DNA from: Dehalococcoidia bacterium
GTDB lineage: Bacteria > Chloroflexota > Dehalococcoidia > Lucifugimonadales > UBA3495
Direction of reading: 5' to 3'
Assembly: GCA_965226825.1 (NCBI GenBank)
Contig: CBDDED010000003.1
Span: 2,985,240-3,049,239 of the forward strand
Length of the DNA: 64,000 bases
Position 1 is the first letter of the stretch; the number at the start of each line of letters is the position of its first letter. Both the position numbers and the translations under genes were made by a program. The notes under the pieces were generated by a model. The model did not search any database. It was given only the letters and a program-made list of their open reading frames with translations, and had not been told where the DNA came from. This document shows, in pieces, positions 7,148 through 54,968 of the stretch.

Positions 7148-7391
7148 GGGTCTTTCGATGATAATCGAATCCCCCGTGGCTCTTGCCGCAACGGGAATCT
7201 GGAGCCCATTTTGACTCCTACCCCGTCATTCTCGCCGCAGCGGGAATCCAGAGCCCTTTTCCCTATCCAACCTGGGGCGTGTCTGAAGGAATGTTCCAAG
7301 TGGGACGTCGACCTGTCCATCCGGCGCGTCTTAGTTGGCATAACAGTCTTGTCACATAATCAGGGTTCTGGATTCCCGCTGCGGCGAGAAT
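7148..7391. repeat. ~269-bp nested-TIR MITE-like element (three REP units), left part up to the IS110 insertion point
   Basis: Together with 8841-8864 it is the reverse complement of 59615-59883 along its whole length (about 85-90% by eye). Confidence 0.8.
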
Positions 7392-10135: not shown

Positions 10136-10315
10136 CGTCTTTCTCGCCGCAGCGGGAATCCAGAGCCCTTCCCCACATCCACGTACGTGTGGCAATGCAG
10201 GAGTGGTCTACATGGGACCGGCCTGCTTGGCTGGGAGGCGAGGCGTCCTACGTATCCTAATCAAGTCTATTGAGGGAAGGGCTCTGGATTCCCGCTGCGG
10301 CGAGAAAGACGGGGG
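10136..10315. repeat. MITE-like unit: inverted pair of REP motifs around a ~110-bp core
   Basis: ..TTTCTCGCCGCAGCGGGAATCCAGAGCCC (10136-10168) and GGGCTCTGGATTCCCGCTGCGGCGAGAAAGACGGGGG (10279-10315) are inverted copies. Confidence 0.75.
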
Positions 10316-10378
10316 TGGGATTGTGCTCCCATCCTTGCTTCTCCTACTCGCGGGAGGGAGGACATTTAGGGCGCACTA

Positions 10379-10624: not shown

Positions 10625-11830
10625 TTGGCAGAGTCGGTCAGTAACCGCCACCACTGGACAACCCTTGTAGTCACCCTGTTGCTGGGGTTGCCCGCCGCCG
10701 CGCTCCTGTTTTCGGGCAGTCACATCAATCCACTCGCCGCCGCCTGCGTATACGGAGTGGGTATTTTGGCCGGCGCTTCCCTGGGCCGCCGAGGTGGCCG
10801 AACTCGACATTTCGGCGTCTCTGGCTATCGCTATTCTCGCCTTGCTCGCCATTCTCCCGGAATATGCCATCGAGTCGGTGCTCGCCTGGGACGCCGGCGC
10901 GTCGTTCAATACCGAGACTCGAGAAATCACGGCAGAGACGCAATGAGTGGCGGCCAACGTAACCGGGGCCAACCGGTTGCTTATCGGCGTGGGTTGGTCC
11001 GTCGTTATCCTGATCTACTGGCTCAAACACCGGGGCGTTCTGGATTTGCGTGGAAAGATGGGGCCCGCGGTGACCTTTCTGACGGTAGCAACGCTTTTGA
11101 CATTTGTCATCTTCTTCAGGCGGGAGTCCATATCCTGCTTGCGGCGGCTCTCATCGGCATCTACATCGCCTACGTGTGGATCAGTTCCACCAGGCCTGCA
11201 GAAGAGCCCGAACTCATCGGCGCTGCGGCGATGATCGGGGCCTTGCCCGCGAAGTGGCGCCGGACGATGGTCGTTTTTTTGCTCGTGTATGCCGCGGGCG
11301 TAATCGTAATCGCCGCGGAGCCCTTTGTGGAAGGACTCGTAGAGGCTGGCGAGGGCTTGGGCGTAGACGATTTCATACTCATCCAGTGGGTCGCGCCGCT
11401 GGCTTCCGAGACCCCGGAGATCATCGTGGCCGTGCTCTTCGGCTTGCGGGCCAATCCCGCTGCTGGTCTGACGGTGCTGATCTCTTCTGAAGTTAACAAG
11501 TTCACCTTGCTGGTAAGCAGCATGGTTGTGATATTCAGCGCATCGGCGGGCCAGATAATCGCATTCCCATTGGACGGCAGGCAGGCCATCGAGTTCCTGC
11601 TGACGACCGCGGTTGCTTTGTTCGGTCTTGTGTTGATCGCCAGGCGGACTGTCGACTGGCGGGCGGGGTCGGCGTTATTGGGCCTGTTCGTTGTTCACCT
11701 GTTCTTCCCTCAGCCGCAACACCGCTTGTGGATCACGTACGGGTATTTTGGACTGACGATATTGCTGATCATCCTGGACTGGCGCCGGGTCAAATTCCTG
11801 GTCCGCGAGGAGCGGCAGCAACCGGATTAG
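10625..11830 (+). pseudogene. Ca2+/cation antiporter (CaCA, Na_Ca_ex repeats) gene, disrupted
   Basis: The protein-like sequence switches frame near 10790 (..WAAEVAELDISASLAIAILALLAILPEYAIE..) and back near 11100. It carries an in-frame TGA at 10944-10946 (..ETQ*VAANVTGANRLLIG..). The C-terminal half is good (..APLASETPEIIVAV..). Confidence 0.7.
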
Positions 11831-16872: not shown

Positions 16873-17988
16873 TTATCCCTGCTCCTCGGCCGGCCCAATT
16901 TCTTCCAAGGTAAGTGTCTTGCCTTTACGTATGGCGTGTACGACAACTTCGCGATCCCAAAGAGGGCGGACTATGTCGTTCATCATTCCTGGCGGAACGA
17001 TGATCCGGCTTGACAAATTTCCGTCGATGACTTGGATAGTATTATTGTTCCCTCGCCGAGCATCAGCGAAGCGTAAAGTCCCCTTCATCTCCACCGGCTC
17101 GGCAGGGGTCGCACGCGAATCGGCGAGGTTTGGGGACGGGAGTTCCGCCGCCGGCGTCGTCAACTCTACGGAACGTTCACTTCCGCCGCGTGTTGCGGTA
17201 AATCCTACCTGACGAAATCGTTCGCCATCGGGTGCTATATTTCTTGCTAAGCCGTAGAAATTTCGCAGATATGCTTGGTCAGGGATAAGATCTTGGATTT
17301 CGTCAACGCGGGATTTGTTGACCAGTTCTATCAGGTCCATAAACTCGTCCACGATGACAGCAGAAGGAGACATCCCCGGCAAAGGAGGCTGAACAGGGCT
17401 GCCGAATTGCATCATTACAGCGAAGCTGCCGTTTCTGGGTGGGGAAAGCAGCAACCGATGATTTTCCCGTATTTCCTTGGGAGGCCCACCCCTCTCTCGA
17501 AACGGCAGACCTTGCTTCCGCTCGGCTGTGCGGTAAATCAGTTGCGCTGAGGTATTAACACGCCCATATACCGCACCTAACTCGGCGACTCCCTTGCCCA
17601 CTTCGGGGCCGGATAGGCTGAATTGGAGTTGGGAGTCCTGGAAAACGATGCCTTTTAGTGCAAGGTGTCGATGAAAGTAAATGTTCTCCAAGAGGTCCCG
17701 TAATTCTTCAGCGATCTCCGGGTCGGGGTCGCCAGCAAGGGCGGTAGCCGCTATCTGTTCGGCTTGGCGAAACCGGCGGCAGTCCAATGCAAGTGAACCG
17801 GCACTACGGTGTAGGACCGACCACAGTAGTCCATCAGAGGCATCCAGTTCGGCGATGGCGGCTAGTTCGGACTCCAATGCCTGCACAAAGTATCCCTGCG
17901 AACGATCCGCGTCGCCGCGAGCACGTTCCCGTATAGCGCGGTCAGTGAACTCCATAGCTTGGTCGTGCAAATCCCTAACGCTGCTCAT
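16873..17988 (-). CDS. hypothetical protein (371 aa), no recognisable domain
   Basis: Long intact ORF in a lower-GC island. Its start overlaps the stop of the upstream gene (ATGA at 17985-17988), suggesting an operon. Confidence 0.6.
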   Translation of the reverse strand: MSSVRDLHDQAMEFTDRAIRERARGDADRSQGYFVQALESELAAIAELDASDGLLWSVLHRSAGSLALDCRRFRQAEQIAATALAGDPDPEIAEELRDLLENIYFHRHLALKGIVFQDSQLQFSLSGPEVGKGVAELGAVYGRVNTSAQLIYRTAERKQGLPFRERGGPPKEIRENHRLLLSPPRNGSFAVMMQFGSPVQPPLPGMSPSAVIVDEFMDLIELVNKSRVDEIQDLIPDQAYLRNFYGLARNIAPDGERFRQVGFTATRGGSERSVELTTPAAELPSPNLADSRATPAEPVEMKGTLRFADARRGNNNTIQVIDGNLSSRIIVPPGMMNDIVRPLWDREVVVHAIRKGKTLTLEEIGPAEEQG

Positions 17989-19884: not shown

Positions 19885-20111
19885 GTGACCCAACCTCAAA
19901 GCCAATCCACGCAGTTTTCTACTCTACGGATCAGGGTGCAACCCAAGGCCTCCAGGTCCAGGGTCGTGGGCTTCCAGGAGTTGGGTTTCCAGGCAACGGG
20001 TTCGAGCGAAGACGTGCTGCACCTTCGGGTCACCGCTCCGCCTGAGGAAGGGAAAGCCAACGCCGCAGTGGTCGCTTTGGTGGCGAAATCCCTGCGAGTG
20101 CCTCCCAGCAG
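19885..20111 (+). pseudogene. DUF167/YggU-family gene, 5' part (split by integrated element)
   Basis: ..LRIRVQPKASRSRVVG...LHLRVTAPPEEGKANAAVVALVAKSLRVPPS is the conserved YggU core. The reading frame leaves the family pattern right after 20111. Confidence 0.8.
20100..20111. repeat. attL-like core, GCCTCCCAGCAG
   Basis: An identical 12-mer occurs at 31605-31616, in the same reading-frame phase of the split gene. Confidence 0.75.
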
Positions 20112-20114
20112 GCG

Positions 20115-20393
20115 TTGTCAATAGAAAGAACTTATCAGTTTTTCATTAAGCTGGAGCGCCCAACCAAGGGACGCAAACCTGCAAACCCATCAATTACCAA
20201 CAAGGCCTACCACAACGACTACACCATCCAGGACCGAAAACGGCGTAGCGAACTTGGCAGATGCAGGAGTTGCCCCGAACCAGCCGTACCCGGACAGACT
20301 CGCTGCACCACTTGCGCAGAGAGGCACAACGAGTTAAGTCGTGCCTACCGAAAACGCCTCAAAGAACGAGAATCAGGGCAGGAAATTTCCTGA
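20115..20393 (+). CDS. small CxxC...CxxC (zinc-ribbon-like) protein, 92 aa
   Basis: ..GRCRSCPEPAVPGQTRCTTCAERHNELSRAYRKRL... It is the first ORF inside attL. The TTG start is uncertain. Confidence 0.4.
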   Translation: MSIERTYQFFIKLERPTKGRKPANPSITNKAYHNDYTIQDRKRRSELGRCRSCPEPAVPGQTRCTTCAERHNELSRAYRKRLKERESGQEIS

Positions 20394-20616
20394 TCAGATA
20401 CAACCCCAAATACCCCCAACATCAACTGCCCAAAGCTTCATGCGGTGATAATATACTCCCCGTATCTACCAATACGTCTACATCCTACCCCAGTACCCAA
20501 CGTTCAGCAGACATCCGAAGACACCAAATCGGGGAGACAATAACTGCGGGCACGTCCGAAATCTCCGACGACCACGCACTGACCAGCATGGAATTTAATT
20601 ACCAAAGGGATTAAAC

Positions 20617-21018
20617 ATGCCTCGAAAATCACCCGCGGGAATATCTACCAACGACCTGATCTTCAGTTCCTATATCGGAACGAACGACCAAGTCTTTCCT
20701 CACGTTCTCTCCCTTTATGTTGAACCAGGAAGCACCGTCGCAGACGTCACCTTCGGCAAAGGAGTATTTTGGAAAAAAGTACCAGTGGGAGTGTTCGACC
20801 TACGCCCTACGGACATCACCACCGGGACAGACTGCAAGAATTTACCATATGCCGACGGAGAGATTGATTGCGTTGTCTTTGATCCGCCATACATGCACAC
20901 CCCCGGAGGGACAGCTCATGTCGACCATCAAAACTACGACGGCGCCGGTGTCAACCATCATCCTCGCCAAATCCAGAGCCAACAGAAACTCGATCCAGGT
21001 CCCCCGGACCGCCAGTAA
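20617..21018 (+). pseudogene. N4/N6 DNA methyltransferase gene, truncated after the DPPY motif
   Basis: ..VADVTFGKGVFW.. (FxGxG-like) and ..DCVVFDPPYMH.. (DPPY). Protein-like sequence is lost about 20 codons later, so the 133-aa length is too short. Confidence 0.6.
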
Positions 21019-21109
21019 TCAGTTCACATAGCTTCGCTAAAGAAAATTCCTAATCCGAGCCATATGGAAACCTTAACGGATCAAGAGCCCCGCGATACAA
21101 TCTCCCACC

Positions 21110-21352
21110 GGAGCAGAACTGCTCTTTGAAATCTTCAACCAGCGCTAAGAGCGGGGCTCCATCCTGGTCACCACCAACCTGCCTTTCGATGAGTGGACCC
21201 AGGTGTTCGGATCGGAACGCCTGACCGGAGCGCTGCTGGACCGTCTCACCCACCATGTCCACATCCTGGAGATGAACGGCGACAGCTACCGCCTCCGGCG
21301 CAGCCGGGAGGACGCCGCCTCGCAAGCTCCGGACAAGCCGGAAGGCGCATAA
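21110..21352 (+). pseudogene. IS21 IstB helper-ATPase gene, C-terminal fragment with internal stop
   Basis: ..[61 protein letters not shown].. is the conserved IstB C-terminus. No N-terminal part and no istA are present. Confidence 0.8.
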
Positions 21353-21480
21353 CACACCGTCAAAACTGCTCCCTCCTACCCTGTAACGTCGCCACCTTGA
21401 CCAATTTTCTGCTGAACGTCAACAGGCCAGTGGTACACGGTTACTCCGCCACAGTGGTATGTTTTGTCGACGCCCTTGAC

Positions 21481-23134
21481 ATCCGGGCTCGAATTCGGGT
21501 AGATGAGGGGTTGGCGGCGGTCTGCAGGCGTTTTTGGGGGCGCCGATGGCGGCCTACAGTGGCTGCGGTGAGCGAGATGGCGGTGAGAGGGCACGGCAAG
21601 AGGCGCTCGCGGACCGGACTGGCGCGAGTTTGCGGGGAGGTTCAGTTTGCGGGGACGTTGGGACACTGGCGGACGGGCGCCGTCAGGCCGGGAGTGGAAT
21701 GGCTCGCAACCTGGCCAGGGCGCGACTGAACTGGGTTTCCCAGGGCCAACCCTTGGGAAGATGCAGGGTGAGGCGGCGTGCCGAGCGGGTGAGCCGTCCG
21801 GCCAGGGCGAAGACCCGCCGCCTGAGGGTCTTGGTGGTCACGATCTGCTCACCCAGGCCGATGCGGGCCGTCCAGCGGGCCAGGTTATGCGCCATCACCT
21901 GAACCGCCAGCCAGGCGCCGTTGGCGGCGAAGCACCCCGACGGCATGTGGTTCAGCCCGACGCCGTACTTGAGGTCGCGTATGGCGTTCTCGACCTCGGC
22001 GTGGCGGCGATGATCGGCCTCCAGTTCCAGCATCTCCCCGTCCCGGTCGGTGATGAAGCCGTGATAGCTGTATCTGGCGAAGAGGGCGAGCTGGGAACCG
22101 GGCGTCGGCTTCACCCGCCGGACAATGAGCCGCACCGGTGCGGCGTCCGGCTTGGTCTGGAACGGGGTGTAAGTAGTCTCGGCGACATCGGCGGCGCCGT
22201 CCATCCAGTAGGGAATGGGAGTCCAGTCCTGCTCTGGTATCGCCTCGATCAGGTCCCGCAGGCTTTTGTGCTGGCGGACGGTGATGGAGAAGCGGACATC
22301 CATTTCCCGGCAGGCGGAAACGACAGTGTGGGCGTAGAAGCCGCTGTCGGCCCGCGCCGTGAGTTGTCCGCTGGCTCCGCCGTAGCGCACCCGCCCCACC
22401 GTTTCACGCAGGAAGTGGGCGGCGCCGCGGGCGGTGTTGGCGCGGCCCTCGCGCAGCCGGGACATCAACACGTCGCCGGTGCCGGCGGCGATAGCCAGCA
22501 GTGGGTGATAGCCACGGGCGCCGGTATAGCCGTGGTGGCGTGCCCCCTCCTTGGCCATGCCGTAGGTTTCGCAGATGGTCGAATCCAGGTCGATGGTCAA
22601 AGGCGCATCGCCGGGTCCGGCCCCGGCCTGCCATGCCCGTGCCAGCAACTGGCGGCTCACGCGGTCGAGTTGACGGACGTGGCCCCAGCGAAAGCTGCGC
22701 AGGAAGGTCCCGAGGGTGGATGGCGCCTTGACCACGCAGCCGAGAACACCGACCGTCCCACCGGCACGCAGCGCATCGGCGTCGTCGATGCAGTCGCCGC
22801 CGGCCAGCGCGGAAGCGACCAGCGTCAGTAGCTTGTCCCCCGTGTTGGCCCGCCCCGGCGCGCCGCCGAGGTCGAGGTGACGGTCGACGAGTTCCCGCAG
22901 GCCCAGGCGCCGGGCGAGGGTGGCAGGAAGAAGCAGGCCGGCATTGGCCACCAGGCGGTGGTCGTCGAAGGTGATTTGGATCCGGTCGGGGTGGTTGCGT
23001 GGTAGCATCTAATGGGTGATCCTTTTCTGGGACTGTTTTTCTGTTCCAAAACCATTATCCCAGATTCAGAAGAGCACCTTTTTGCCCTTTCAGGAGGCCT
23101 CTCACACGCCCTTGTTCGGTGGATTGGGGCTTAT
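21481..23134 (-). mobile_element. IS1380-family IS, copy 1 (one terminus missing)
   Basis: Homology with copy 2 starts abruptly at 21481 (= 28470 of copy 2). The ~80 bp carrying the transposase-distal terminal IR are therefore absent. The other end, ..CGGTGGATTGGGGCTTA, is at 23117-23133. Confidence 0.75.
21683..23008 (-). CDS. IS1380-family DDE transposase (441 aa)
   Basis: MLPRNHPDRIQITFDDHRLVANAGLLLPATLARRLGL..GDCIDDADALR.. is characteristic of IS1380-type transposases. Intact ORF. Confidence 0.85.
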   Translation of the reverse strand: MLPRNHPDRIQITFDDHRLVANAGLLLPATLARRLGLRELVDRHLDLGGAPGRANTGDKLLTLVASALAGGDCIDDADALRAGGTVGVLGCVVKAPSTLGTFLRSFRWGHVRQLDRVSRQLLARAWQAGAGPGDAPLTIDLDSTICETYGMAKEGARHHGYTGARGYHPLLAIAAGTGDVLMSRLREGRANTARGAAHFLRETVGRVRYGGASGQLTARADSGFYAHTVVSACREMDVRFSITVRQHKSLRDLIEAIPEQDWTPIPYWMDGAADVAETTYTPFQTKPDAAPVRLIVRRVKPTPGSQLALFARYSYHGFITDRDGEMLELEADHRRHAEVENAIRDLKYGVGLNHMPSGCFAANGAWLAVQVMAHNLARWTARIGLGEQIVTTKTLRRRVFALAGRLTRSARRLTLHLPKGWPWETQFSRALARLRAIPLPA

Positions 23135-23294
23135 GAACCTGGTGCGCCAATTCCGCCGCCTAAAGGTAATCGCGTTACATCTGGGCGGATTCTACATGCT
23201 GGAGGTGGCGGAGCGGGAGTTGATTGGTCTGTAGGCGTCCCAGCGCGGTCTCGCGCCAAGAGGGCGTTTGAGGGGTTTATCCTCCCCCTCCGGC

Positions 23295-24365
23295 TTATCT
23301 GGTCAAGACCTGGGCCAAGCTCTCCAGGAAGCCGCCGATGTGGTCCTGTGTGATCAACCCAACGGTGCCCAGGCGGAAGGTAGTCTCGCTCAATGGACCC
23401 TGAGACTTGTAAATCAAGTACCCGCGCTCTTTCAAAGGCCGATGCAGGTCATTGTAGGAGAACCCGTCGGGCAGCATTACCGAGGTCATGGTGTTGGACA
23501 GGTTCTCTCGGGACACCAGGAAACTCAACTCCAGGGCTGCCAGTCCGTCGCGCAGCGAATGGGCGATGTCGCGGTAGTGGGCTATGCGGCGGTCCACGCC
23601 CTCCTCCAGCAATTCCCTGGCAGCCTCCCGGAGAGCATAAATGGTCTGGATGGGCGGCGTGAAGGGGGTCTCTCCTTCCTCTTCCCGGATCAAGGCGCCG
23701 ACCAGGTCGGTGGAAAAAGTCACCTGGCGCCGTTGGGCCACCACTTCCAGCAGCTCATTGGAGACCACCACGAAGGAGGCCCCGGGAATGCCGCGAAGGC
23801 ACTTGTTGGCCGACCCGATAATCAGGTCGACACCCCAACTGGGCAGGTCCAACTCCTCGCCGGCCACGCTGCTAACGGTATCCACCAGCACCCACTTTTG
23901 ACGGCCTTTGGCTATCTCGGCAACCTGGGCCAGGTCATTGAGGACACCCGTGGTGGTCTCGTGGTGGATCAGATACACCACATCGTGGGAGGTGGCGCCA
24001 ACCAACTCCTCCACTCGTTCCAGGGGCAGGGGAAGTGTCCAGTCGAAATTCTCCAGGGTGAAGGGAATCCCGAAGACCTGCGCGATCTGGGCGGCCCGCT
24101 CACCATAGACTCCATTGGACAGGACCAAGACGCCACTGGTAACGCCGGCCAGGGAGGTAATAGCGGCTTCGATGCCTGTGGTGCCGGAGCCGCTTAGCAC
24201 GGCGCAGGCGTATCCTTTGGGCACGCCACATACCTGAAGTAGCAGAGAGCGGGTTTCCAGCAGAAGCTCGGAGAACTCGGACTCACGGTGGCCAATGTCG
24301 GGCAGGGTGAGAGCCAGGCGAACGCGCTCGGAGATGTTGGCCGGGCCGGGCGAAAATATTATCAT
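23295..24365 (-). CDS. class-V aminotransferase, 2-aminoethylphosphonate:pyruvate transaminase-like
   Basis: MIIFSPGPANISERV.. N-terminus, 356 aa. It is the last gene of the pepM-ppd operon, so the function is assigned from context. Confidence 0.7.
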   Translation of the reverse strand: MIIFSPGPANISERVRLALTLPDIGHRESEFSELLLETRSLLLQVCGVPKGYACAVLSGSGTTGIEAAITSLAGVTSGVLVLSNGVYGERAAQIAQVFGIPFTLENFDWTLPLPLERVEELVGATSHDVVYLIHHETTTGVLNDLAQVAEIAKGRQKWVLVDTVSSVAGEELDLPSWGVDLIIGSANKCLRGIPGASFVVVSNELLEVVAQRRQVTFSTDLVGALIREEEGETPFTPPIQTIYALREAARELLEEGVDRRIAHYRDIAHSLRDGLAALELSFLVSRENLSNTMTSVMLPDGFSYNDLHRPLKERGYLIYKSQGPLSETTFRLGTVGLITQDHIGGFLESLAQVLTR

Positions 24366-24370
24366 CCCGT

Positions 24371-24943
24371 TCAGTCCTTCCGGTGGACGTTGCTCCGGAA
24401 CCGGTCCCTGATCTCGGTTGGCGGGTGGGACACCCGGGGAATACCCTCCACCGGGGCAATACCGGCCTTGACCAGAATCAGGTGGGGGCCCGGTACACCG
24501 GCCACCCCCAAAAGAGCGTCTTCCAAGTCTTCTATATCATCCACTCGCGCCACCTGCCGGTAGCCGCAGCTCTTGGCTACCTCGGCCAAGTCCACTTTGG
24601 AGCTAATGGTTGGCTGCCCTCCGGTGGACTCGTAGGATTCGTTGTCCAGGATAAAATGGACGAGGTTGCTGGGATTTTCGCCGGCGATGAGGGGCAAAGC
24701 ACCCAGGCTCATCAATGCGCTGCCATCTCCCTCCAGCACAAAAACCCGCTGCTCCGGCACCATCAGGGCCAGACCCAGACCGAAGGATGACAGGAGCCCC
24801 ATGGAGCCGATCATGTAGAAATTCCCGGGCCTGTCTTCGGTGAAGAATACCTCACGCGATATCATCCCCGTGGTGCTCAACACCAGGTCGGCGGGCCGGA
24901 CATGCGCCAGGATTTTCTCTATGGCCCTGTAGCGGCCGATCAA
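24371..24943 (-). CDS. phosphonopyruvate decarboxylase, beta (TPP-binding) subunit
   Basis: ..VFVLEGDGSALMSLGALPL..FILDNESYESTGGQ.. (GDG..N thiamine-diphosphate motif). A 4-nt overlap with the alpha subunit gene. Confidence 0.75.
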   Translation of the reverse strand: MIGRYRAIEKILAHVRPADLVLSTTGMISREVFFTEDRPGNFYMIGSMGLLSSFGLGLALMVPEQRVFVLEGDGSALMSLGALPLIAGENPSNLVHFILDNESYESTGGQPTISSKVDLAEVAKSCGYRQVARVDDIEDLEDALLGVAGVPGPHLILVKAGIAPVEGIPRVSHPPTEIRDRFRSNVHRKD

Positions 24944-25434
24944 TCCACCACTCCAGGCCTGATCAGCAGCGCTCCTGGTACCGATCGCCTGTGGATTTCC
25001 GCCAACAGCCGGTCCAAGGCGTACTCCAGTTGGTCCGGCTCCGGTACTTCGTAGGGGACTTCCAGAAGGTCAAAAATCTCCGGCGACTTCACACCCATGA
25101 TCCAATGCTCGGGAGCGTCGTTGGGTGGACCGCCATAACCTCGCCAGCCGACTACCAGCAGCACCGGAATCTTGTACATCAGGCTAAACGAGGTCAGGGG
25201 ATTTACGATGTTGCCGATTCCCGAGTTCTGCATCATGACGCCGCCCAGTTTCCCGGCGAAATAGGCGGCGCTGGCCACGCCCAGAGCCACGTCTTCCCGC
25301 ACCGCTGGCACGTAGCGCACCTCCGGGTCTTCCACCATATAGTTGTAGGATTGTTGAAACGTAGAGTCGGGCACACCGGAGAAGAAAGTCAAACCTCGCG
25401 CCTTCAGCACGTCCCAGAAAGCTCCTGCTTCCAT
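24940..25434 (-). CDS. phosphonopyruvate decarboxylase, alpha subunit
   Basis: N-terminal TPP-enzyme pyrimidine-binding-type sequence ..FFSGVPDSTF..MQNSGIGN... Located next to pepM. Confidence 0.7.
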   Translation of the reverse strand: MEAGAFWDVLKARGLTFFSGVPDSTFQQSYNYMVEDPEVRYVPAVREDVALGVASAAYFAGKLGGVMMQNSGIGNIVNPLTSFSLMYKIPVLLVVGWRGYGGPPNDAPEHWIMGVKSPEIFDLLEVPYEVPEPDQLEYALDRLLAEIHRRSVPGALLIRPGVVD

Positions 25435-25452
25435 GATCTAATAGCCGACCAA

Positions 25453-26472
25453 TTAGCCCGGTACGGCCTCTACCGCCGGTATCCCGGCGCCAGGGCCTGC
25501 TCCGTTTCTTCGGTTCTCCACCAGACGCATGTCCTCGGCCCGCTCCCGGTCTTTGCGGTTGATGCGGTCTAAGCCCACCGTGGCAAATATCTCGCCTACC
25601 GGCGCGCACAACGGGTCCACCTCCAGGCTGCGCCCGCTCTCCAGGATGGTCCGGGCCGCCTGGTTCATGGCTTTATAGGCGGCCCGGAGCAGATGGTTCG
25701 CGTGGATGATGATGTTGAAACCACACGCGACCAGCTCCGCGTCGCTGACGGTATTGTATGTGGTTGGCACGCTTACTAGGACCGGCCGGCGGCCCATGCG
25801 GCCGCACAGTGCCTCGTAGGCCTCCGCGAAGGCCAGAATGTCGTCGGGCCGCCGGTCGCTGGAGTGTACCATGAGGCCATCGGCCCCAGCCTGAATGTAC
25901 TGCTCTGCCCTTTCCAGGGCGTCCTCTAAACCTGCGCCGGCGATGAGGCTCTCCAGCCGGGCGATGACCATGAAATCATCGCTGATAACCATCTCTCTAC
26001 CCGCCCTAATCTTCTGGGCAAAGACCAACGGGTCCTCCAGGTCCTGGCTGGCGGACCCGTCGAGGCTGTTTCTCTTGGGAAACACCTTGTCTTCGATTAT
26101 CACGGCCGAAACACCCAACCGCTCCAGGTTCTTGACCATGTATTCGAACTGGGAGGCTTCACCGCCGGTGTCGCCGTCCACGATAATGGGCTTGGTAGTA
26201 ACATTGAGTATTTCGTCGATGGTGCGGGCGCGGGAGTCGTTGCCGACGATGGAGGCGTCGGGCAATCCCTTAGTGGCCGAGTCGGTGAGGCTGCTTTCCC
26301 ATATCCCGTCGTATTCGACAACCTGGCCGTTCATCTGGACCCGGGCATTTTCCACCACCAACCCGCTCAGGCCGCTGTGGGCTTCCAGGATACGGGCAAA
26401 TCCCTTCCGGGAGATGCACTCCCGCAAACCGCTGAGCCGTTCCCAGGGCCCGATTCTGTTTTCAATACTCAT
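25453..26472 (-). CDS. pepM: phosphoenolpyruvate mutase
   Basis: Isocitrate-lyase/PEP-mutase fold sequence carrying the PepM-diagnostic EDKxxxxxNS motif as IIEDKVFPKRNS. Confidence 0.85.
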   Translation of the reverse strand: MSIENRIGPWERLSGLRECISRKGFARILEAHSGLSGLVVENARVQMNGQVVEYDGIWESSLTDSATKGLPDASIVGNDSRARTIDEILNVTTKPIIVDGDTGGEASQFEYMVKNLERLGVSAVIIEDKVFPKRNSLDGSASQDLEDPLVFAQKIRAGREMVISDDFMVIARLESLIAGAGLEDALERAEQYIQAGADGLMVHSSDRRPDDILAFAEAYEALCGRMGRRPVLVSVPTTYNTVSDAELVACGFNIIIHANHLLRAAYKAMNQAARTILESGRSLEVDPLCAPVGEIFATVGLDRINRKDRERAEDMRLVENRRNGAGPGAGIPAVEAVPG

Positions 26473-26547
26473 ACGAACCTCCTCCTTTGTCCACTAGAGC
26501 CAGACTTAATAGGGGCGCCGCGCCGAATGGCTATGGAGTGTAGACAG

Positions 26548-27576
26548 TCAGGGCTCGGAAGGCTTCTCCGCTGTAACGAGCGCCAGTTGGGTAGGCAGGG
26601 CAATGGTTCTGGTATTTTGGAAACCCGAAGCCTCGAGCCACGAGGCTACCTCTTTGCCTTCCCGGTCGCCGGCACCGGGGTCGAAGGCAACCAGCACGTA
26701 CATGTCCTCGAAGGTGTCCAGCCTCTTTCGCTCGGCGCTCTCGTCAATGCGCATGTAGTCCTGGATGATTACCATGCCGCCGGGCAGCAAAAGGTCATAG
26801 GCCAGCCGGAACAGCTGGCGGCAGTCCTCTCCGGACTTGATCAGGACCACACCAGAGATGAGCACCACATCGTAGTCCGCACCCGCCTCCGCCTTGAAGA
26901 AGTCGCCTTCAAGCAGAGAAATCTGGCTTTGCAGGTTATGCTCTTCCACAAGGGTCTTGGCGATGATGAGGGGCTCTTTTTGGTCTAGCACGACGGCTTT
27001 GAGCTGAGGGTTGGCGGCGCATAAGGCGATACTGTAGCTGGCCGCTCCACCGCCCAGGTCCAGAAGCTTGCGCCGGTCCCGCAGGTCCACATTTTCCACC
27101 AAATGGTAGGCCTGCCCAGAGACGGCGCGGTTGTGCTGGCCCATCATGTAGTTGGTCCAGTAGGTGGGCGGGTCAACGAATCCGGTCTCGTAAGGCAACA
27201 GGGTCTTACCTTCGAGGATTATCTCGTCAAGTCGGCCCCAGGAGGCCCAAGTGTTGGTGTGGTGAAGGGCGTGGTCGCCCACATAGGCTTTCTTGGTTTT
27301 GACTAGGAATGATGAGGAAAGGGGAGAATTGCCGTATTTGTCCCCCTTGGTCTCCAGCAGGTCAAGGGCTACACACGAATCGAGAAACGCCTGGACATAT
27401 CGTGGAGAGGCGCCCAGGTTTTGGGCCACTTGGCCGTGGGTTAACTCCTGGTCCTCCAGCAGTGAAAATACGTCGAGCTTGATGGCAGCCCGCAGTATGG
27501 CCGAGTACCAGAAATTACGCGCCAACTCGTTGACGCGCTCCGCCTCCATGTGCGCGGGAGGGCTGGACCGGTCCAT
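26548..27576 (-). CDS. SAM-dependent O-methyltransferase (dimerisation domain + class I MTase)
   Basis: ..LLDLGGGAASYS.. glycine-rich SAM motif after a ~100-aa winged-helix-like N-terminal part. First gene of the phosphonate operon. Confidence 0.7.
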   Translation of the reverse strand: MDRSSPPAHMEAERVNELARNFWYSAILRAAIKLDVFSLLEDQELTHGQVAQNLGASPRYVQAFLDSCVALDLLETKGDKYGNSPLSSSFLVKTKKAYVGDHALHHTNTWASWGRLDEIILEGKTLLPYETGFVDPPTYWTNYMMGQHNRAVSGQAYHLVENVDLRDRRKLLDLGGGAASYSIALCAANPQLKAVVLDQKEPLIIAKTLVEEHNLQSQISLLEGDFFKAEAGADYDVVLISGVVLIKSGEDCRQLFRLAYDLLLPGGMVIIQDYMRIDESAERKRLDTFEDMYVLVAFDPGAGDREGKEVASWLEASGFQNTRTIALPTQLALVTAEKPSEP

Positions 27577-28096
27577 GCAGTTTCCTCCTCTGTGCTTTGG
27601 CGCCCGCTATCGTCGCTTTTGATGTTCCAGGCCGGTTACGTCCAGCCCCATAATAAAAATTAAATGCCAATAGACATTCGCAGGGAGTTTAGGGGCAATA
27701 CACCAGCTGATCCCGCCCCCAAGGGGACGGGAGTTAAAGGTATTTTTCAGGGAAGGGAAATTGAAACGGCGGCGCTAGGGGTCGAAAGGAAGGGCATGCT
27801 GGTATCTGGATTGCAAGTTGCTGCGGCGCGACCACCTGATGGGTGCCTTGCCGGTGCGACTACTCAGGCGGTTGATAGTCCCAGAATCGAGAGGGACTAC
27901 AACCGGTACGCTCGCACCTTTTATGCTACTTAGGACGGTCACATCTACATCCAGTCCCTTGGCGTACCCTACCACCCCCTAGAGAAAGGGGAGGTTTCTG
28001 ATGCTCGATGAGTGTAGCGGCGAGTGTAACAACGTTGACCCGCTTCGTCAACTTGTGCCCAACAGAAGCGAACCGCCATCACCGGTGCCTCCGTCA

Positions 28097-28387
28097 TCAG
28101 GGCTGATGAGCCGCCCCACCCTTGCGGGCGAACAACAGGCAATGCTCTACGGACTTGCTGTCGGTTAAATGTAGGAGAGCCGCCAGGTCGTCGGGTGAGT
28201 CGGGCCTGATTAGGGTTACTTTCTGCTGCCCTAGTATGCCCAGAATATCGTTCTCTTCGTAAAGCTGAAAGTTCCGCTCCATTCCGTAGTCCTGGTCGAA
28301 CACGGTGAGGATGCCACGCCCGTTCTTGAACATGAGCTGCAGGACGCCTTGGGGGCATAGTACCCGGGCCAGCTCGGGCAACACCAC
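28097..28387 (-). pseudogene. class I SAM methyltransferase gene, C-terminal fragment cut by IS1380 copy 2
   Basis: ..LPELARVLCPQGVLQLMF.. is the typical post-motif region. The ORF is open up to the IS terminus at 28390 and lacks SAM-binding motifs. Confidence 0.55.
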
Positions 28388-28389
28388 CT

Positions 28390-30123
28390 CTTAGCCCGAA
28401 TCCACCGGTGGACACTGATAGACGGCGTGAGGACAGCGGAAGGGTGGTGAGGGAGTTACAGACGCGATGATCCGGGCTCGAATTCGGGTAGATGAGGGAT
28501 TGGCGGCGGTCTGCAGGCGTTTTTGGGGGCGCCGATGGCGGCCTACAGAGGCTGTGGTGAGCGAGATGGCGGGATAGGACACGGCAAGAGGCGCTCGCGG
28601 GGACCGAGATGGCGCGAGTTGGCGGGGACGTTCAATTGGCCGGATGGCGGGTCAGTGGCAGACGGGCACCATCAGGCTCGGAGTGGAATCGCTCGCAGTC
28701 GGGTCAAGGCGCGACTGACCTTCTCCTCCCATGGCCAACCCTTGGGAAGATGCAGGGTGAGGCGGCGTGCCGAGCGGGTGAGCCGTCCGGCCAGGGCGAA
28801 GACCCGCCGCCTGAGGGTCTTGGTGGTCACGATCTGCTCACCCAGGCCGATGCGGGCCGTCCAGCGGGCCAGGTTATGCGCCATCACCTGAACCGCCAGC
28901 CAGGCGCCGTTGGCGGCGAAGCACCCCGACGGCATGTGGTTCAGCCCGACGCCGTACTTGAGGTCGCGTATGGCGTTCTCGACCTCGGCGTGGCGGCGAT
29001 GATCGGCCTCCAGTTCCAGCATCTCCCCGTCCCGGTCGGTGATGAAGCCGTGATAGCTGTATCTGGCGAAGAGGGCGAGCTGGGAACCGGGCGTCGGCTT
29101 CACCCGCCGGACAATGAGCCGCACCGGTGCGGCGTCCGGCTTGGTCTGGAACGGGGTGTAAGTAGTCTCGGCGACATCGGCGGCGCCGTCCATCCAGTAG
29201 GGAATGGGAGTCCAGTCCTGCTCTGGTATCGCCTCGATCAGGTCCCGCAGGCTTTTGTGCTGGCGGACGGTGATGGAGAAGCGGACATCCATTTCCCGGC
29301 AGGCGGAAACAACAGTGTGGGCGTAGAAGCCGCTGTCGGCCCGCGCCGTGAGTTGTCCGCTGGCTCCGCCGTAGCGCACCCGCCCCACCGTTTCACGCAG
29401 GAAGTGGGCGGCGCCGCGGGCGGTGTTGGCGCGGCCCTCGCGCAGCCGGGACATCAACACGTCGCCGGTGCCGGCGGCGATAGCCAGCAGTGGGTGATAG
29501 CCACGGGCGCCGGTATAGCCGTGGTGGCGTGCCCCCTCCTTGGCCATGCCGTAGGTTTCGCAGATGGTCGAATCCAGGTCGATGGTCAAAGGCGCATCGC
29601 CGGGTCCGGCCCCGGCCTGCCATGCCCGTGCCAGCAACTGGCGGCTCACGCGGTCGAGTTGACGGACGTGGCCCCAGCGAAAGCTGCGCAGGAAGGTCCC
29701 GAGGGTGGATGGCGCCTTGACCACGCAGCCGAGAACACCGACCGTCCCACCGGCACGCAGCGCATCCGCGTCGTCGATGCAGTCGCCGCCCGCCAGCGCG
29801 GAAGCGACCAGTGTCAGTAGCTTGTCCCCCGTGTTGGCCCGCCCCGGCGCGCCGCCGAGGTCGAGGTGACGGTCGACGAGTTCCCGCAGGCCCAGGCGCC
29901 GGGCGAGGGTGGCAGGAAGAAGCAGGCCGGCATTGGCCACCAGGCGGTGGTCATCAAAGACAATGCGGATCCGGTCGGGATTGTTCTGTGGCAGCATCTA
30001 TAGGGTGCTCCTTGTTTCCAGACGGTTTTCTGTTCCAAAACCATTATCCCAGATTCAGAAGAGCACCCTCCGGATTCTTCAAGGTCTGTCCCCAGGGCCG
30101 TCCTTCGGTGGATTCGGGCTAAG
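28390..30123 (-). mobile_element. IS1380-family IS, copy 2 (complete, 1734 bp)
   Basis: Perfect 18-bp terminal inverted repeats: CTTAGCCCGAATCCACCG (28390-28407) and its reverse complement at 30106-30123. No flanking direct repeat is visible. Confidence 0.85.
28672..29997 (-). CDS. IS1380-family DDE transposase (441 aa)
   Basis: Identical to the copy-1 protein except for about 4 N-terminal and about 5 C-terminal residues. Confidence 0.85.
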   Translation of the reverse strand: MLPQNNPDRIRIVFDDHRLVANAGLLLPATLARRLGLRELVDRHLDLGGAPGRANTGDKLLTLVASALAGGDCIDDADALRAGGTVGVLGCVVKAPSTLGTFLRSFRWGHVRQLDRVSRQLLARAWQAGAGPGDAPLTIDLDSTICETYGMAKEGARHHGYTGARGYHPLLAIAAGTGDVLMSRLREGRANTARGAAHFLRETVGRVRYGGASGQLTARADSGFYAHTVVSACREMDVRFSITVRQHKSLRDLIEAIPEQDWTPIPYWMDGAADVAETTYTPFQTKPDAAPVRLIVRRVKPTPGSQLALFARYSYHGFITDRDGEMLELEADHRRHAEVENAIRDLKYGVGLNHMPSGCFAANGAWLAVQVMAHNLARWTARIGLGEQIVTTKTLRRRVFALAGRLTRSARRLTLHLPKGWPWEEKVSRALTRLRAIPLRA

Positions 30124-31652
30124 GAATTCATTCAGCGCCAGCGCTGGATGCTAGTCGCCATCTACACCGACGATGCCCAAACCGGTCGTTCCAGCGATCG
30201 TCCCCGGTTCCTCGACATGATTTCAGACGGCACCCGCAACCGTGAATTTGACATCGTCGTCGTCTGGAAATTGAACAGATTCGCCCGCGACAAATACGAC
30301 AGTATCGTCCTTAAGAACAGGCTATCCAAAGCGAAAATTCAGGTTGTATCCATCAACGAACCCAACGACGGTTCTCCCCAAGGAATGCTCATGGAAGGAA
30401 TCGTCGAATCCATGGATGAGTATTATTCAGCCAGCCTCTCCCAGGATGTCAGACGCGGCACCAGACGTCTCGCCGAGCGCGGCTTCTACGTGAGTAGCAC
30501 AGCCCCCTACGGGTACAGAATCGTAGACGTGATGGACGGCGATAGACGCTGACATAAACTGGACCTGGCCCCCTCACTGCGCCCATTGCCAGGCGGATCT
30601 GGGAGATGGCCCTCGATGGAGTCACCGTCCACAAGATCATGAAAACCCTCAATCATGAAGGAATTCCCGGCCCACAGGGCGGAAGATGGGCCTATGGCAC
30701 ATTACGGAACATGCTGAAACATGAACAATACACAGGGACCATAGTACGCGGCCTCGCGGGCCCCCGCAGAGACGAGCCGGTCCGAACGCCAAACTGCCAT
30801 CCTGCATTCGTTTCTCAGGAGGAGCACGACCGCGTACAGACAATCATCGCCGAAAGAGCGCCTAAACTATCAAACCCCCGAGCAGTACATCCCCGACAAA
30901 CAGGAAGCAAGCACCTATTCTCAGAACTCAGTTGGTGTGAGAACTGCGGTCAAAAAGCGATCCACCAATCGGGCCACGGCGGCAAGTACGTATATGTCTA
31001 CTGCAAAGACTATAGCCAACAGGATCCAAGCGGGTGTACCTGCCCTCACCGCAACGTGAAGCATGTTGAGCCCAAGATCATGGACGCTCTCATGGAAGAC
31101 ATCCTAACTGAGCCCAACATCCAGAATCTCATCGACCGGATAAAGTCGGAGACGGACAAAACCCAATCAGGCCACCAACAAGACACCAATGCTCTCCACC
31201 AACAATTGGAAGAGGTGATCAAGAGACAAAACCGGGTCGAACTCGCCTATGAAACGAGCCGGATGTCCCTGGAAAAATACGTGGAGCGCATGGACGAACT
31301 CAATGAGCAACAGGCCAACCTGGAAGCTTTGAAGGCTGAAGCCCAGGCAAGCGTGGGAGACGAAGCAGCCATTCTGGAAAACCCCGAAACGGTCCTATCC
31401 TACGCAGAGCGGATCCGAGAATCTCTGAAAACCGCCGACCCCAGCGAGTCCAAGCCTCTCATCAAAAAGTTCGTCAAGCGCGTGCTGTTCGGCGGCGAGG
31501 GTCTCACCATTGAGTACAAGCTCCCACTACCCGAGGGAGGCCCATTCAGCGGATTGAGACGCCGACGCCTTGACCTGGGGAAGAAAGTTCCGTCTATCGA
31601 TAACGCCTCCCAGCAGCGTCAGCATAATCAAAGGGTTAATCTCGCGGGATAA
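30124..31652 (+). pseudogene. large serine recombinase gene: 5'-truncated by IS1380, plus in-frame TGA and frameshift
   Basis: Starts mid-domain (..LVAIYTDDAQTGRSSDRPRFLDMI..DIVVVWKLNRFARD..) without the catalytic-Ser region. PYGY.., stop at 30550 and frame change near 30570. Then the recombinase domain, Cys-rich zinc ribbon (WCENCG..CKDY..CTCPH) and coiled coil. Confidence 0.8.
31605..31616. repeat. attR-like core, GCCTCCCAGCAG
   Basis: Identical to 20100-20111. It lies inside the last codons of the recombinase ORF. Confidence 0.75.
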
Positions 31653-31716
31653 AGTCTTGCGGATCAATCTTCTTACCTTGGATGAAATCAAAGAGCGACT
31701 GGCGGCCTCCCAGTGA
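31617..31716 (+). pseudogene. DUF167/YggU-family gene, 3' part
   Basis: In the phase set by the 5' part it reads ..SVSIIKGLISRDKVLRINLLTLDEIKERLAASQ*. This matches the V.I..G..SR.K...I C-terminal pattern of YggU proteins. Confidence 0.75.
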
Positions 31717-31871
31717 GTCCCTGTCACTCCCGCCCAACCTGACCCCGTGGGCCGCCCCTTTTTGTGAGCGCCGTCAGGCCGTTATAATTGCCCTCAGAGG
31801 CCCGCATTAGATTAGGTCCTCTGGATTCCCCTCGCGGCGGTCTAACACTGCCGGGACAAGGAGCGTGACTC

Positions 31872-32926: not shown

Positions 32927-33165
32927 GGGGGGTGGGGCTGATTTGCGGGCGTCGGATGGCTCGTCGGCGGTTCCATGACCGTATTGGTGCACAGCGGGGG
33001 CTCTGGATTCCCGTTGCGACGAGAATGACGGGGGTGGGGCCGCATTGCAGGCGTCGGACGGCTCGTCGGCGGCGCCATAACCATGTTGGCGCACAGCGAA
33101 GGCTCTGGATTCCCGTTGCGCGGAGAATGACGGGGGAACCGGGTTGGGGGCGTCGGACGGGCGCG
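32927..33165. repeat. Tandem ~104-bp REP-containing units (2 full + partial)
   Basis: Units ending in GGCTCTGGATTCCCGTTGCG(A/C)(C/G)GAGAATGACGGGGG. The spacer part resembles the units of the 54.4-55.0 kb array. Confidence 0.8.
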
Positions 33166-39065: not shown

Positions 39066-39206
39066 AAAAGGGCTCTGGATTCCCGCTGCGGCGAGAATGA
39101 CGGGAGTAGGGGACAAAAGGGCTCTGGATTCCCGCTGCGGCGAGAATGACGGGAGTGGGGGACAAAAGGGCTCTGGATTCCCGCGGCGGCAACAGTGACG
39201 GGGGAA
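39066..39206. repeat. Three tandem REP units (period 49 bp) between glcD and glcE
   Basis: AAAAGGGCTCTGGATTCCCGCTGCGGCGAGAATGACGGGAGT(A/G)GGGGAC x2, plus a diverged third unit. A partial REP lies at 38985-39010. Confidence 0.85.
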
Positions 39207-43497: not shown

Positions 43498-43704
43498 TCA
43501 AGCGTTGTTTCCGTTGGCAGCGGGACTGGACTGCCTTTCCGACGGCGGGGGTTCGTCGAACGGACGGCCGTCTGCCCTGGCTTGATTGAACCTATTCAGC
43601 CAGGCTTCCCATTCTTGACGCTCCAGTTGACGTCCTCGCTGTTCGCCCCTTGCCTCCGCTCTTTTCCGAAGCCACTCCGCGAACCATTCCGAGAGCATGG
43701 ACAT
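43498..43704 (-). CDS. small protein, truncated paralog 1 of 44088..44492
   Basis: Shares ..LSEWFAEWLRKRAE..RGRQLERQEWEAWLNRFNQARADGRPFDEPPPSE.. with the other two copies. A stop codon sits 14 codons upstream of the ATG, so the TM region is missing. Confidence 0.45.
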   Translation of the reverse strand: MSMLSEWFAEWLRKRAEARGEQRGRQLERQEWEAWLNRFNQARADGRPFDEPPPSERQSSPAANGNNA

Positions 43705-43781
43705 AACCTCAACTACAACAGTTAGGAAAGTGGTTCTAAGGGGCGGCTATTGGCAGGTTGATATGGCGACGGGGAAAACGG

Positions 43782-44003
43782 TCAAGCAATGTGTGCGTAG
43801 GAAGCAGTTCTAGACTGCTTTTCCGACGGAGGGGGTTCATCGAACGGACGGCCGTCTGCCCTGGCTTGATTGAACCTATTCAGCCAGGCTTCCCATTCTT
43901 GACGCTCCAGTTGGCGCCCTCGCTCTTGCCCTCTAATCTCCTCTCCAATCTCCCTTAGCTCCCTTTTTTTCCGAAGCCACTCTGCGAACCATACCGAGAG
44001 CAT
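43782..44003 (-). CDS. small protein, truncated paralog 2
   Basis: Same conserved C-terminal module and the same upstream stop position as paralog 1. Confidence 0.45.
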   Translation of the reverse strand: MLSVWFAEWLRKKRELREIGEEIRGQERGRQLERQEWEAWLNRFNQARADGRPFDEPPPSEKQSRTASYAHIA

Positions 44004-44087
44004 GAAAATAACCTCTACTACAACGGTTAAGAGAGTGATTCCAAGAGGAGGCTATGCGCAGGTTGACAAGCCAACGGGGGTAACCGG

Positions 44088-44492
44088 TCAAGCGTTGTTT
44101 TCGTTGGCAGCGGGACTGGACTCCCTTTCCGACGGCGGGGGTTCGTCGAACGGCCGGCCGTCTGCCTGAGCCTGCTTAAACCTGTTCAGCCAGGCTTCCC
44201 ACTCGCGGCGTTCCAGTTGGCGTCCTCTTTTCTCCGCTCTTTTCTGAAGCCACTCTGAGAGCATGAAGATAACCTCTACGATAACTGTTGTGCTTACGAC
44301 TGATATGAGGACGAATGGGCTGGAATTACGCCCTATAGCGATGAAAGTCTCGAAAAAATTATCATGGGTACGGACGATGATTTCATACCACGACACGATT
44401 CCCGTATGCAATCCCACCTGGAGCGGGAAGAGGACCCAGAAAAATATGCGCCATGATGCAGGCACGATCCAAATGGATTCTCTGTCTTGCAA
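44088..44492 (-). CDS. small membrane protein (134 aa), full-length member of the tandem family
   Basis: Two hydrophobic segments (IFFWVLFPLQVGLHTGIV, FVLISVVSTTVIVEVIFML) followed by the conserved RGRQLERREWEAWLNRF..DGRPFDEPPP tail. Confidence 0.55.
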   Translation of the reverse strand: MQDRESIWIVPASWRIFFWVLFPLQVGLHTGIVSWYEIIVRTHDNFFETFIAIGRNSSPFVLISVVSTTVIVEVIFMLSEWLQKRAEKRGRQLERREWEAWLNRFKQAQADGRPFDEPPPSERESSPAANENNA

Positions 44493-54306: not shown

Positions 54307-54418
54307 TTACCAGTCTCGGAAGTTGGAATATTTGCACTCAATTTTGACCGAGACTTAGTATCTCGGAAGGCCCAAGTATATATCACGCTGAAAGACCCGT
54401 CATCGGATAGTGGCGATT

Positions 54419-54968
54419 AGAAAGGGCTCTGGATTCCCGTTGCGATCGGAAAGACGGAGGTTGGGCGCTGGCCGGCCCGCACGACGTGTCTGGGTTGCCA
54501 TAACCGTCTAGGCGCACGGAAAGGGCTCTGGATTCCCGTTGCGATGGGAAGACGGGGGTTGGGCTCTGGCCCGGCCCGCATGATGTGTCTCGGTTGCTAT
54601 AACCGTGTTGGGTCATAGAAAGGGCTCTGGATTCCCCCTTGCGGGGAGAATGATGGGAGTTGGGCGCTGGCCGTCCCACCCTGGCGTGGCTCTGTTGCCG
54701 TGACCGCAGTGGCGCATAGAAAGGGCTCTGGATTCCCACTGCGGTGAGAATGACGGGGGGTTGGGCACTGGCCGTCCCACCCTGGCGTGGCTCTGTTGCC
54801 GTGACCGCAGTGGCGCATAGAAAGGGCTCTGGATTCCCACTGCGGTGAGAATGACGGGGGTTGGGCACTGGCCGTCCCACCCTGGCGTGGCTCTGTTGCC
54901 GTGACCGCAGTGGCGCATAGAAAGGGCTCTGGATTCCCACTGCGGTGAGAATGACGGGGGTTGGGCAT
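54419..54968. repeat. Tandem array of six ~100-bp REP-containing units between trpD and trpG
   Basis: Units start at about 54420, 54519, 54618, 54719, 54818 and 54917. The last three are nearly identical, inter-REP part included. Confidence 0.9.

Follow-up and report, generated by a model that had tools for sequence, protein, structure and literature searches.

The 64-kb window analyzed here (64,000 nucleotides of contig CBDDED010000003.1 from a Dehalococcoidia bacterium of the Chloroflexota, GenBank assembly GCA_965226825.1; the window is this whole stretch, and all coordinates refer to it) contains a yggU gene, coding for a DUF167 protein, which is split into two parts by an interval of 11.5 kb. 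We conclude, with a probability of roughly 0.9, that this interval is an island which entered yggU by means of a large serine recombinase (LSR) and is now stranded there as a remnant. The evidence comes from the two junctions, from uninterrupted and occupied sites in related contigs, from the symmetry of the attP site that appears when the ends of the element are joined, and from the state of the recombinase gene itself.

The split yggU gene and its attachment sites

The open reading frame (ORF) that begins at 19885 follows the DUF167 family pattern up to ...SLRVPPS, continues with four foreign codons and ends at a TAG (20122-20124). The missing C-terminus is found in phase immediately behind the second copy of a 12-mer, GCCTCCCAGCAG. 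Its two plus-strand copies, at 20100-20111 and 31605-31616, are the only ones in the 64-kb window. The features at the two junctions are:

19885 to 20111, plus strand: 5' part of yggU (DUF167), codons 1-75
31617 to 31716, plus strand: 3' part of yggU, codons 76-108, stop codon at 31714-31716
20083 to 20131: attL, consisting of the host left half-site, the 12-bp core (20100-20111) and the right attP arm of the element (20112-20131)
31581 to 31640: attR, consisting of the left attP arm of the element (31581-31604), the 12-bp core (31605-31616) and the host right half-site

Deletion of 20112-31616 (11,505 bp), which joins 19885-20111 to 31617-31716, creates a single ORF of 108 codons. The deduced 108-aa DUF167/YggU protein matches the Pfam profile DUF167 (PF02594) at 84.8 bits (4.4e-24; gathering threshold 30.9) and covers profile positions 3-75 of 76, whereas the interrupted ORF of 79 aa spans positions 3-58 only. 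The repaired protein can also be aligned end to end with 17 relatives, one of which (P0056), 91% identical across the junction, reads ...SLRVPPSSVSIIKGL... at this position. A first-pass annotation, made from the sequence of the window alone, had claimed that an 11.5-kb element splits a DUF167/YggU gene between two copies of the same 12-mer, and had proposed a profile search with the reconstructed protein as a check; all of this was confirmed. On its own, a repeated 12-mer would be weak evidence, since about 122 identical 12-mer pairs are expected by chance per 64 kb and 2052 12-mers recur in the window. Its weight derives from the position of both copies exactly at the break points of one ORF. 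Outside the two copies of GCCTCCCAGCAG, the sequences flanking them are not related to each other.

Uninterrupted sites were identified in three related contigs. The junction in L002 corresponds base for base to the left side of attL, the core and the right side of attR, with no base extra or missing, and this contig is collinear with the window on both sides, in the order enoyl-CoA hydratase, yggU, phosphatase, JAB and Na/Ca exchanger. An intact yggU within the same gene neighborhood is also present in L003 and in L005, a contig from a Dehalococcoidia metagenome-assembled genome (CAXXRM010000004.1) that is collinear on both sides with an identity of 91-94% over about 20 kb. The attB cores of the latter two read GCCCCGCAGCAG (L003) and GTCCCCCAGCAG (L005); variation is confined to the left portion of the core, and CAGCAG, including the central CA, is invariant. 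A second occupied site, at the same position and in the same orientation, was found in a contig from another sample (L001). Here, an intact LSR of 566 aa (P0001) reads through CCCTCCCAGCAG into the 3' end of yggU, and the same attR is present without any insertion sequence (IS). P0001 and the window LSR are 82-84% identical at the protein level and 89.8% at the DNA level. The search for empty sites in relatives and the comparison of att sites that had been suggested with the first-pass annotation were thus both successful, yielding one exact and two variant empty sites and a related, intact recombinase at the same position. Neither of the two outcomes named there as refuting the element came about, as the repaired protein aligns with its family over the full length and relatives with an empty site exist.

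A view of what was lost from the window is given by L001, where small ORFs and remains of a second LSR lie upstream of the intact one; the window has no match to any of these. The second LSR (L001:722-2550) is broken up into three ORFs, one of which has the opposite orientation, and its C-terminus (...HYSIPLPSDSPLAGSQRQEIDLPTEILSS) is similar to that of the intact LSR. We also observed that L003 carries a GIY-YIG gene just upstream of yggU (L003:9617-9946) and a GmrSD-type gene between the JAB and Na/Ca exchanger genes (L003:11584-13698), neither of which is called at those positions in L002. Thus, the stretch around yggU varies between strains beyond the recombinase island.

The attP site was reconstructed by joining the two ends of the element (31581-31616 and 20112-20131, i.e. 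TTCCGTCTATCGATAACGCCTCCC followed by AGCAGGCGTTGTCAATAGAAAGAA). The resulting site, ATCGATAACGCCTCCCAGCAGGCGTTGTCAATAG, is an imperfect palindrome of 48 bp in which 18 of 24 arm positions are complementary, a score that was reached by none of 2000 shuffled sequences. Symmetry in attB, attL and attR stays at chance level, with 10-11 matching positions out of 24; attB itself (20083-20111 joined to 31617-31640; GCGAGTGCCTCCCAGCAGCGTCAGCATAATC) has 10. The symmetry axis of attP is located between core positions 7 and 8, from which we infer CA as the crossover dinucleotide, non-palindromic as directionality requires. Judged from the arrangement of the site, the exchange most probably took place at this CA in the middle of the shared core. 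The LSR 3' end of a more distant relative (P0007 on L091, 33% identical) contains CTATTGACA, the reverse complement of TGTCAATAG in the right arm of the window, suggesting a half-site motif that is conserved across the LSR clade. The annotation had further remarked that an identity of 12 bp is long for a serine recombinase crossover site. Compared with the sites of the SPbeta recombinase SprA, which share 16 bp (PMC5499854), the core is on the long side, but not exceptional.

The recombinase and its relatives

The gene adjacent to attR is the following:

30124 to 31652, plus strand: LSR pseudogene, starting at about codon 62, with its last 12 codons in host DNA past the core

Its two ORF pieces (30148-30552 and 30606-31652) match the Pfam domains Resolvase (PF00239), Recombinase (PF07508) and Zn_ribbon_recom (PF13408), all three of which are carried by the intact homolog P0001. 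The match to the Resolvase domain begins only at profile position 36. Homology to P0001 starts at about codon 62, where it abuts the right inverted repeat of an IS1380-family element (copy 2, which ends at 30123), and P0001 residues 1-61, the region with the catalytic serine, have no match anywhere in the window. Alignment with L001 revealed two additional lesions, a nonsense codon (TGA at 30550-30552, where L001 has CGG) and a deletion of 1 nt at 30566/30567. With the N-terminal serine region gone, a stop codon and a frameshift, the recombinase is dead and the element is a remnant. It is no longer able to excise on its own, and yggU stays split, with both att sites of the element still intact. 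In these respects the earlier description was accurate, as it had placed an LSR whose last codons read through the core next to attR, had listed the same three defects and had regarded the element as stranded.

The state of the recombinase also bears on the idea that the element is active as a regulated gene switch, comparable to SPbeta, skin or fdxN, and that its excision would restore yggU under some condition. The layout is that of SPbeta in spsM, with an LSR element within a coding gene and a shared core that keeps the frame upon excision; moreover, P0001 matches XisF and CcrB of NCBIfam weakly, with scores that fall far short of the cut-offs, and the LSR of L001 is intact. However, the recombinase of the window is devoid of its catalytic N-terminus and is broken by a stop and a frameshift, a second LSR was not found in the window, and no directionality factor was identified. 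We therefore consider a functional switch very unlikely.

Relatives of the recombinase occur at the borders of islands with genes of the defense type. P0002 (L086) is accompanied by a DEAD helicase and a PD-(D/E)XK nuclease, P0003 (L087) by a DUF1156 methylase, TIR and SNF2/PLD proteins, and P0007 (L091) by Prok-E2, ThiF and Prok_Ub proteins. In this clade the LSR ORF has no stop codon before the crossover, and the last codons are always provided by the DNA on the other, host side. Accordingly, the last ~31 codons of P0003 (L087:11629-11722) consist of host DNA beside an alpha/beta-hydrolase gene, and the corresponding region is uninterrupted in L088. The ORF of P0007 (L091:10001-11701) runs antisense through a tRNA-Ala gene (11554-11629, minus strand), and P0004-P0006 end in the same tRNA-like peptide. 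Among these related islands, no attL was found in the flanking 10 kb of L091, and for L001, L086 and L087 the flanking sequence ends before the left end is reached.

Formally, the borders could also have been left by a DDE-type transposon, with the end repeats GGCGTTGTCAATAG... and ...CTATCGATAACGCC as terminal inverted repeats and either TCCCAGCA (8 bp) or the full 12 bp as target duplication, since imperfect inverted repeats flanked by direct repeats are the signature of cut-and-paste or replicative transposition. We regard this as extremely improbable. No transposase can be tied to these ends, as the interior contains only IS1380-family elements with different inverted repeats and an IS21 fragment; the terminal gene is an LSR with an ORF running through the repeat, a diverged copy is located at the same base-exact site in L001, and LSR relatives at island borders likewise read into their targets, including a tRNA gene. 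In addition, a duplication of 8 bp would leave four more identical border bases to coincidence.

Several observations weigh against LSR-mediated entry of an island, or at least against details of it. The attL junction has been seen in this window only, because L001 ends before its attL, and the position of cleavage is a putative one, read from the symmetry of attP. An excised circle or an attP junction, for which the annotation had proposed to search, was encountered in none of the collections searched, so that attP is a reconstructed and not an observed site. In the interior, the way in which segments follow one another across the two IS copies of 1.7 kb is only as reliable as the assembly. 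Finally, the LSR genes of the window and L001 are more diverged (89.8% identity) than the adjacent host DNA, where these two form the closest pair with about 96.5% identity in the right flank (96.2% for L002). Given this difference, one ancestral integration is indistinguishable from two independent ones; relaxed constraint on the pseudogene could explain the gap. With respect to further copies, a single degenerate pattern covering attB, attP, attL and attR had no match in the JGI metagenomes, and a scan with P0001 for a free or second complete copy in viral contigs, GTDB genomes and JGI metagenomes gave pattern matches, none of which was confirmed.

The interior of the element

All 11.5 kb of the interval could be accounted for. 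About 75% of it, comprising two IS1380-family copies and a phosphonate cassette, is secondary and not part of the original element, which the annotation had not noted. This division is paralleled by G+C contents of about 0.51-0.56 for the element remnants, 0.67-0.70 for the IS copies and 0.58-0.63 for the cassette. From left to right, the interval contains, in addition to the LSR pseudogene:

20115 to 20393, plus strand: zinc-ribbon (ZnR) gene, 92 aa, with a TTG start at 20115, 4 nt after the core
20617 to 21018, plus strand: DNA methyltransferase fragment, residues 3-95 of which match positions 20-114 of the 238-position phrog_24333
21101 to 21349, plus strand: 3' fragment of an IS21-family istB gene, last 82 codons, in-frame stop
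21481 to 23134, minus strand: IS1380-family copy 1, lacking about 80-90 bp including the inverted repeat on the window-left side; transposase ORF 21683-23008
23295 to 24365, minus strand: class-V aminotransferase of the 2-aminoethylphosphonate (AEP) aminotransferase type, TIGR03301
24371 to 25434, minus strand: phosphonopyruvate decarboxylase (Ppd) as two ORFs, beta (24371-24943) and alpha (24940-25434)
25453 to 26472, minus strand: phosphoenolpyruvate mutase (PepM), TIGR02320
26548 to 27576, minus strand: O-methyltransferase with Methyltransf_2 and Dimerisation domains
28390 to 30123, minus strand: IS1380-family copy 2, complete, 1734 bp; transposase ORF 28672-29997

The annotation had compared the layout with that of an LSR-integrated prophage or a remnant of an integrative and conjugative element, an interpretation that is not supported. 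Genes for phage structure, packaging or lysis are absent from the 11.5 kb, the only PHROG match being the DNA methylase, and neither the LSR nor the ZnR query retrieved anything from viral contigs or the phage collection. Relaxase, coupling protein and type IV secretion genes were found neither among the ORFs of the interval nor in the 10-kb flanks of related islands. Based on the gene content of these relatives, the ancestor is most economically interpreted as a small defense or restriction-modification island borne by an LSR.

The istB fragment of the window matches residues 146-227 of the IstB protein encoded on L089 with 78% identity. The same piece of about 200 bp occurs near ZnR genes in L004 and L089 (83-88% identity), and one database protein (P0257) consists of an IstB tail fused to a zinc-ribbon module.

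For the IS1380-family copies, the transposase scores 328.7 bits against an NCBIfam equivalog cut-off of 180. Copy 2 is bounded by inverted repeats of 24 bp, 22 of which match, whereas copy 1 is without one end. Members of this family duplicate 4-5 bp of their target; no target-site duplication was detected at copy 1, at copy 2 or around the pair. When the copies are compared (21481-23134 with 28470-30123), they appear as mosaics, in which a stretch of 1,220 bp in the center is 99.6% identical and the ends have an identity of 55-86%. This pattern suggests recombination or gene conversion between two different family members rather than two clean insertions. Bracketed by these two copies in direct orientation is an intact 5.3-kb pepM-ppd-aminotransferase-O-methyltransferase cassette. 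PepM exceeds the equivalog cut-off of TIGR02320 (333.1 bits, cut-off 319.55) and the two Ppd ORFs each match one half of TIGR03297 (129.6 and 195.5 bits); the score of the AEP-type aminotransferase (313.8 bits to TIGR03301) is below the cut-off of 360.8. A segment covering the cassette and 149 bp of the inner end of IS copy 1 (22986-28005) recurs with 99.56% identity on a 5-kb contig from a different sample (L085, JGI 3300064085). One end of this contig reaches 149 bp into IS copy 1, and the other stops some 385 bp before IS copy 2. According to a sequence look-up, an identical phosphoenolpyruvate mutase is also encoded on contigs longer than 1 Mb. An additional ORF of 96 aa (28097-28387, minus strand) abuts the left inverted repeat of IS1380 copy 2 and has no Pfam or PHROG match. 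By eye it resembles the C-terminal part of an S-adenosylmethionine-dependent methyltransferase and may represent a gene truncated by the IS.

Two same-family IS copies in direct orientation around an intact pepM cassette are reminiscent of other IS-bracketed metabolic cassettes. Unlike in a composite transposon, however, the outer end of copy 1 is missing, the flanks are unrelated, a target duplication is lacking and the copies are mosaic. With an outer IS end missing, no target duplications and mosaic copies, the structure is not demonstrably a mobile composite transposon.

Repeated IS copies may also give rise to an assembly artefact in which contigs are wrongly joined, accounting for the interval in whole or in part. 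The two 1.7-kb repeats with their 1,220-bp stretch of 99.6% identity would be a suitable substrate, and L085 stops just within or short of them. Against this, attR was independently reproduced in L001 and the transition from the cassette to the inner end of IS copy 1 in L085, the ends of the IS copies differ sufficiently (80-86% identity) to anchor each copy, and attL and attR fit together into a palindromic attP, as would not be expected from a random mis-join. Hence, the chance that the interval is an artefact appears to be very slight. There is next to no chance that an IS1380 composite transposon (IS, phosphonate cassette, IS) jumped into yggU with the recombinase and ZnR pieces as passengers: for all that its two direct copies surround an intact cassette, the IS ends at 21481 and 30123 lie 1.4-1.5 kb inside the junctions (20112 and 31604), copy 1 is without an outer inverted repeat, neither the copies nor the pair have a target duplication and L001 has the same attR in the absence of an IS, so that this origin is refuted for the yggU junctions and possible only as the way by which the cassette reached the island.

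At the left end, the ZnR gene directly follows the core. TTG 20115 is its only possible start, overlaps the TAG that terminates the truncated yggU and leaves no room for a promoter of its own; consensus promoter and terminator scans at both junctions found nothing. The predicted fold consists of a helix, a C4 zinc knuckle and a second helix (mean predicted local distance difference test score 86) and has no significant match in the PDB, the best being YbiI and DksA2 with E values of about 2-3. The gene is represented by 247 sequences among 1.84 billion proteins (HMMER), and the peptide had no match in viral contigs, plasmids or phages. On L004, L089 and L090 the gene stands by itself at the head of methylase/nuclease modules, which comprise type II methylases and PLD-like or HEC-08 proteins. 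If the element of the window is circularized in silico, the LSR ORF, having no stop before the crossover, continues in frame through the core into the ZnR ORF and gains 93 residues. In L088 (10001-11215), the beginning of a related ZnR ORF coincides with a junction within an M20 peptidase gene, to which the ORF is fused in frame, followed by an IS and a type I restriction-modification system. It might be speculated that the att site acts as a switch, such that integration trims the C-terminus of the LSR and places the promoterless ZnR/methylase cargo behind the promoter of the interrupted host gene, and that attP in this LSR clade may coincide exactly with the border of a recombinase-to-cargo unit. 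If true, the att site would change both the recombinase and the expression of the cargo between the free and the integrated state, which would be of wider interest. We consider the switch unlikely. Several points speak against a fusion by design: in-frame continuity has a one-in-three chance, the N-termini of the family put TTG 20115 in register as an ordinary start, and the gene stands alone in three other contexts. Natural LSR-ZnR fusion proteins were found neither among the LSR homologs examined nor among the ZnR proteins examined from 150 listed of the 247 HMMER matches; the partners seen in fusions with the module are an M20 peptidase fragment, an FN3 protein, a tyrosine integrase and an IstB tail. 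That the ZnR gene is a part of the recombinase itself was rejected as the leading interpretation, based on its stand-alone occurrence and its regular start codon.

Taken together, the data are best explained by a history that begins with recombination between the attP of an LSR island, a site of about 48 bp overlapping the last LSR codons, and an attB within yggU of a Dehalococcoidia chromosome. Exchange at the CA of the core would have left attL at 20100 and attR at 31605. Later insertions of an IS21 and two IS1380-family elements, together with rearrangements between these, would have removed the first ~61 codons of the LSR and the upstream part of the island, reduced the left end to the ZnR gene and a DNA-methylase stub and placed the 5.3-kb phosphonate cassette of the 2-aminoethylphosphonate type between the IS1380 copies. 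The LSR would also have gathered its two further lesions, the nonsense codon and the 1-nt deletion. The order of these events and the arrival of the cassette are our interpretation of the present arrangement. By this route an integrative island gutted by insertion sequences would have become the fixed carrier of a phosphonate cassette, at the price of the permanent inactivation of yggU, a conserved gene of unknown function.

Apart from the element, the window contains a dispersed intergenic repeat with the core GGCTCTGGATTCCC..GCG..GAGAATGAC, which is present both as single copies and as tandem arrays with units of 49, 101 and 102 bp. Copies are located at 31819-31839, 32928-33136, 39066-39202 and 54409-54971 and near 7171-7261, 10277-10319 and 59768-59860; L005 carries a longer array (17090-17650). 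By its sequence it looks like a repeat of the repetitive extragenic palindromic (REP) or miniature inverted-repeat transposable element (MITE) type that belongs to this lineage. A tandem duplication is present at 43662-44227, with a 306-bp unit in 1.9 copies (81% identity).

Comparison with known systems

In mycobacteriophage BPs (PMC4557955), a tyrosine integrase acts on an attP located inside the repressor gene, resulting in integration-dependent immunity. BPs is comparable only with regard to the speculative att-site switch, in that an ORF contains attP, internally or at its end, and integration alters the C-terminus of the protein. It differs in its tyrosine integrase and in affecting a repressor, whereas in the present case the LSR itself is affected.

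Much closer is SPbeta of Bacillus subtilis, for which SprA sites with a 16-bp shared core, an attP with an extended inverted repeat centered on the crossover dinucleotide and an attB without obvious symmetry have been described (PMC5499854). Similarly, the element in yggU is an LSR element in a coding gene, with a core (here 12 bp) that preserves the reading frame, a symmetric attP and an asymmetric attB. In contrast, SPbeta, which resides in spsM, is a whole phage that can be induced and that has both an active SprA and the directionality factor SprB, while the element of the window has no phage genes, an LSR pseudogene, yggU as target and a Dehalococcoidia host.

The serine integrases of A118/LI, Bxb1 and phiC31 consist of three domains and use att sites of about 40-50 bp with half-sites around a non-palindromic central dinucleotide (PMC3783163). 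The three-domain recombinase, the size of the att sites and the half-sites flanking a central dinucleotide, here deduced from sequence, are shared with the system described in this study; the lack of a stop codon in the ORF before the crossover sets the window LSR clade apart. From this uncharacterized Chloroflexota clade, a well-documented attB/attP pair with a putative crossover position is now at hand together with the sequence of an intact enzyme, P0001, and these could be tested as a new integrase/site combination. The current understanding of serine recombinases is left unchanged by the element in yggU, which represents an ordinary, clean case of a known element type.

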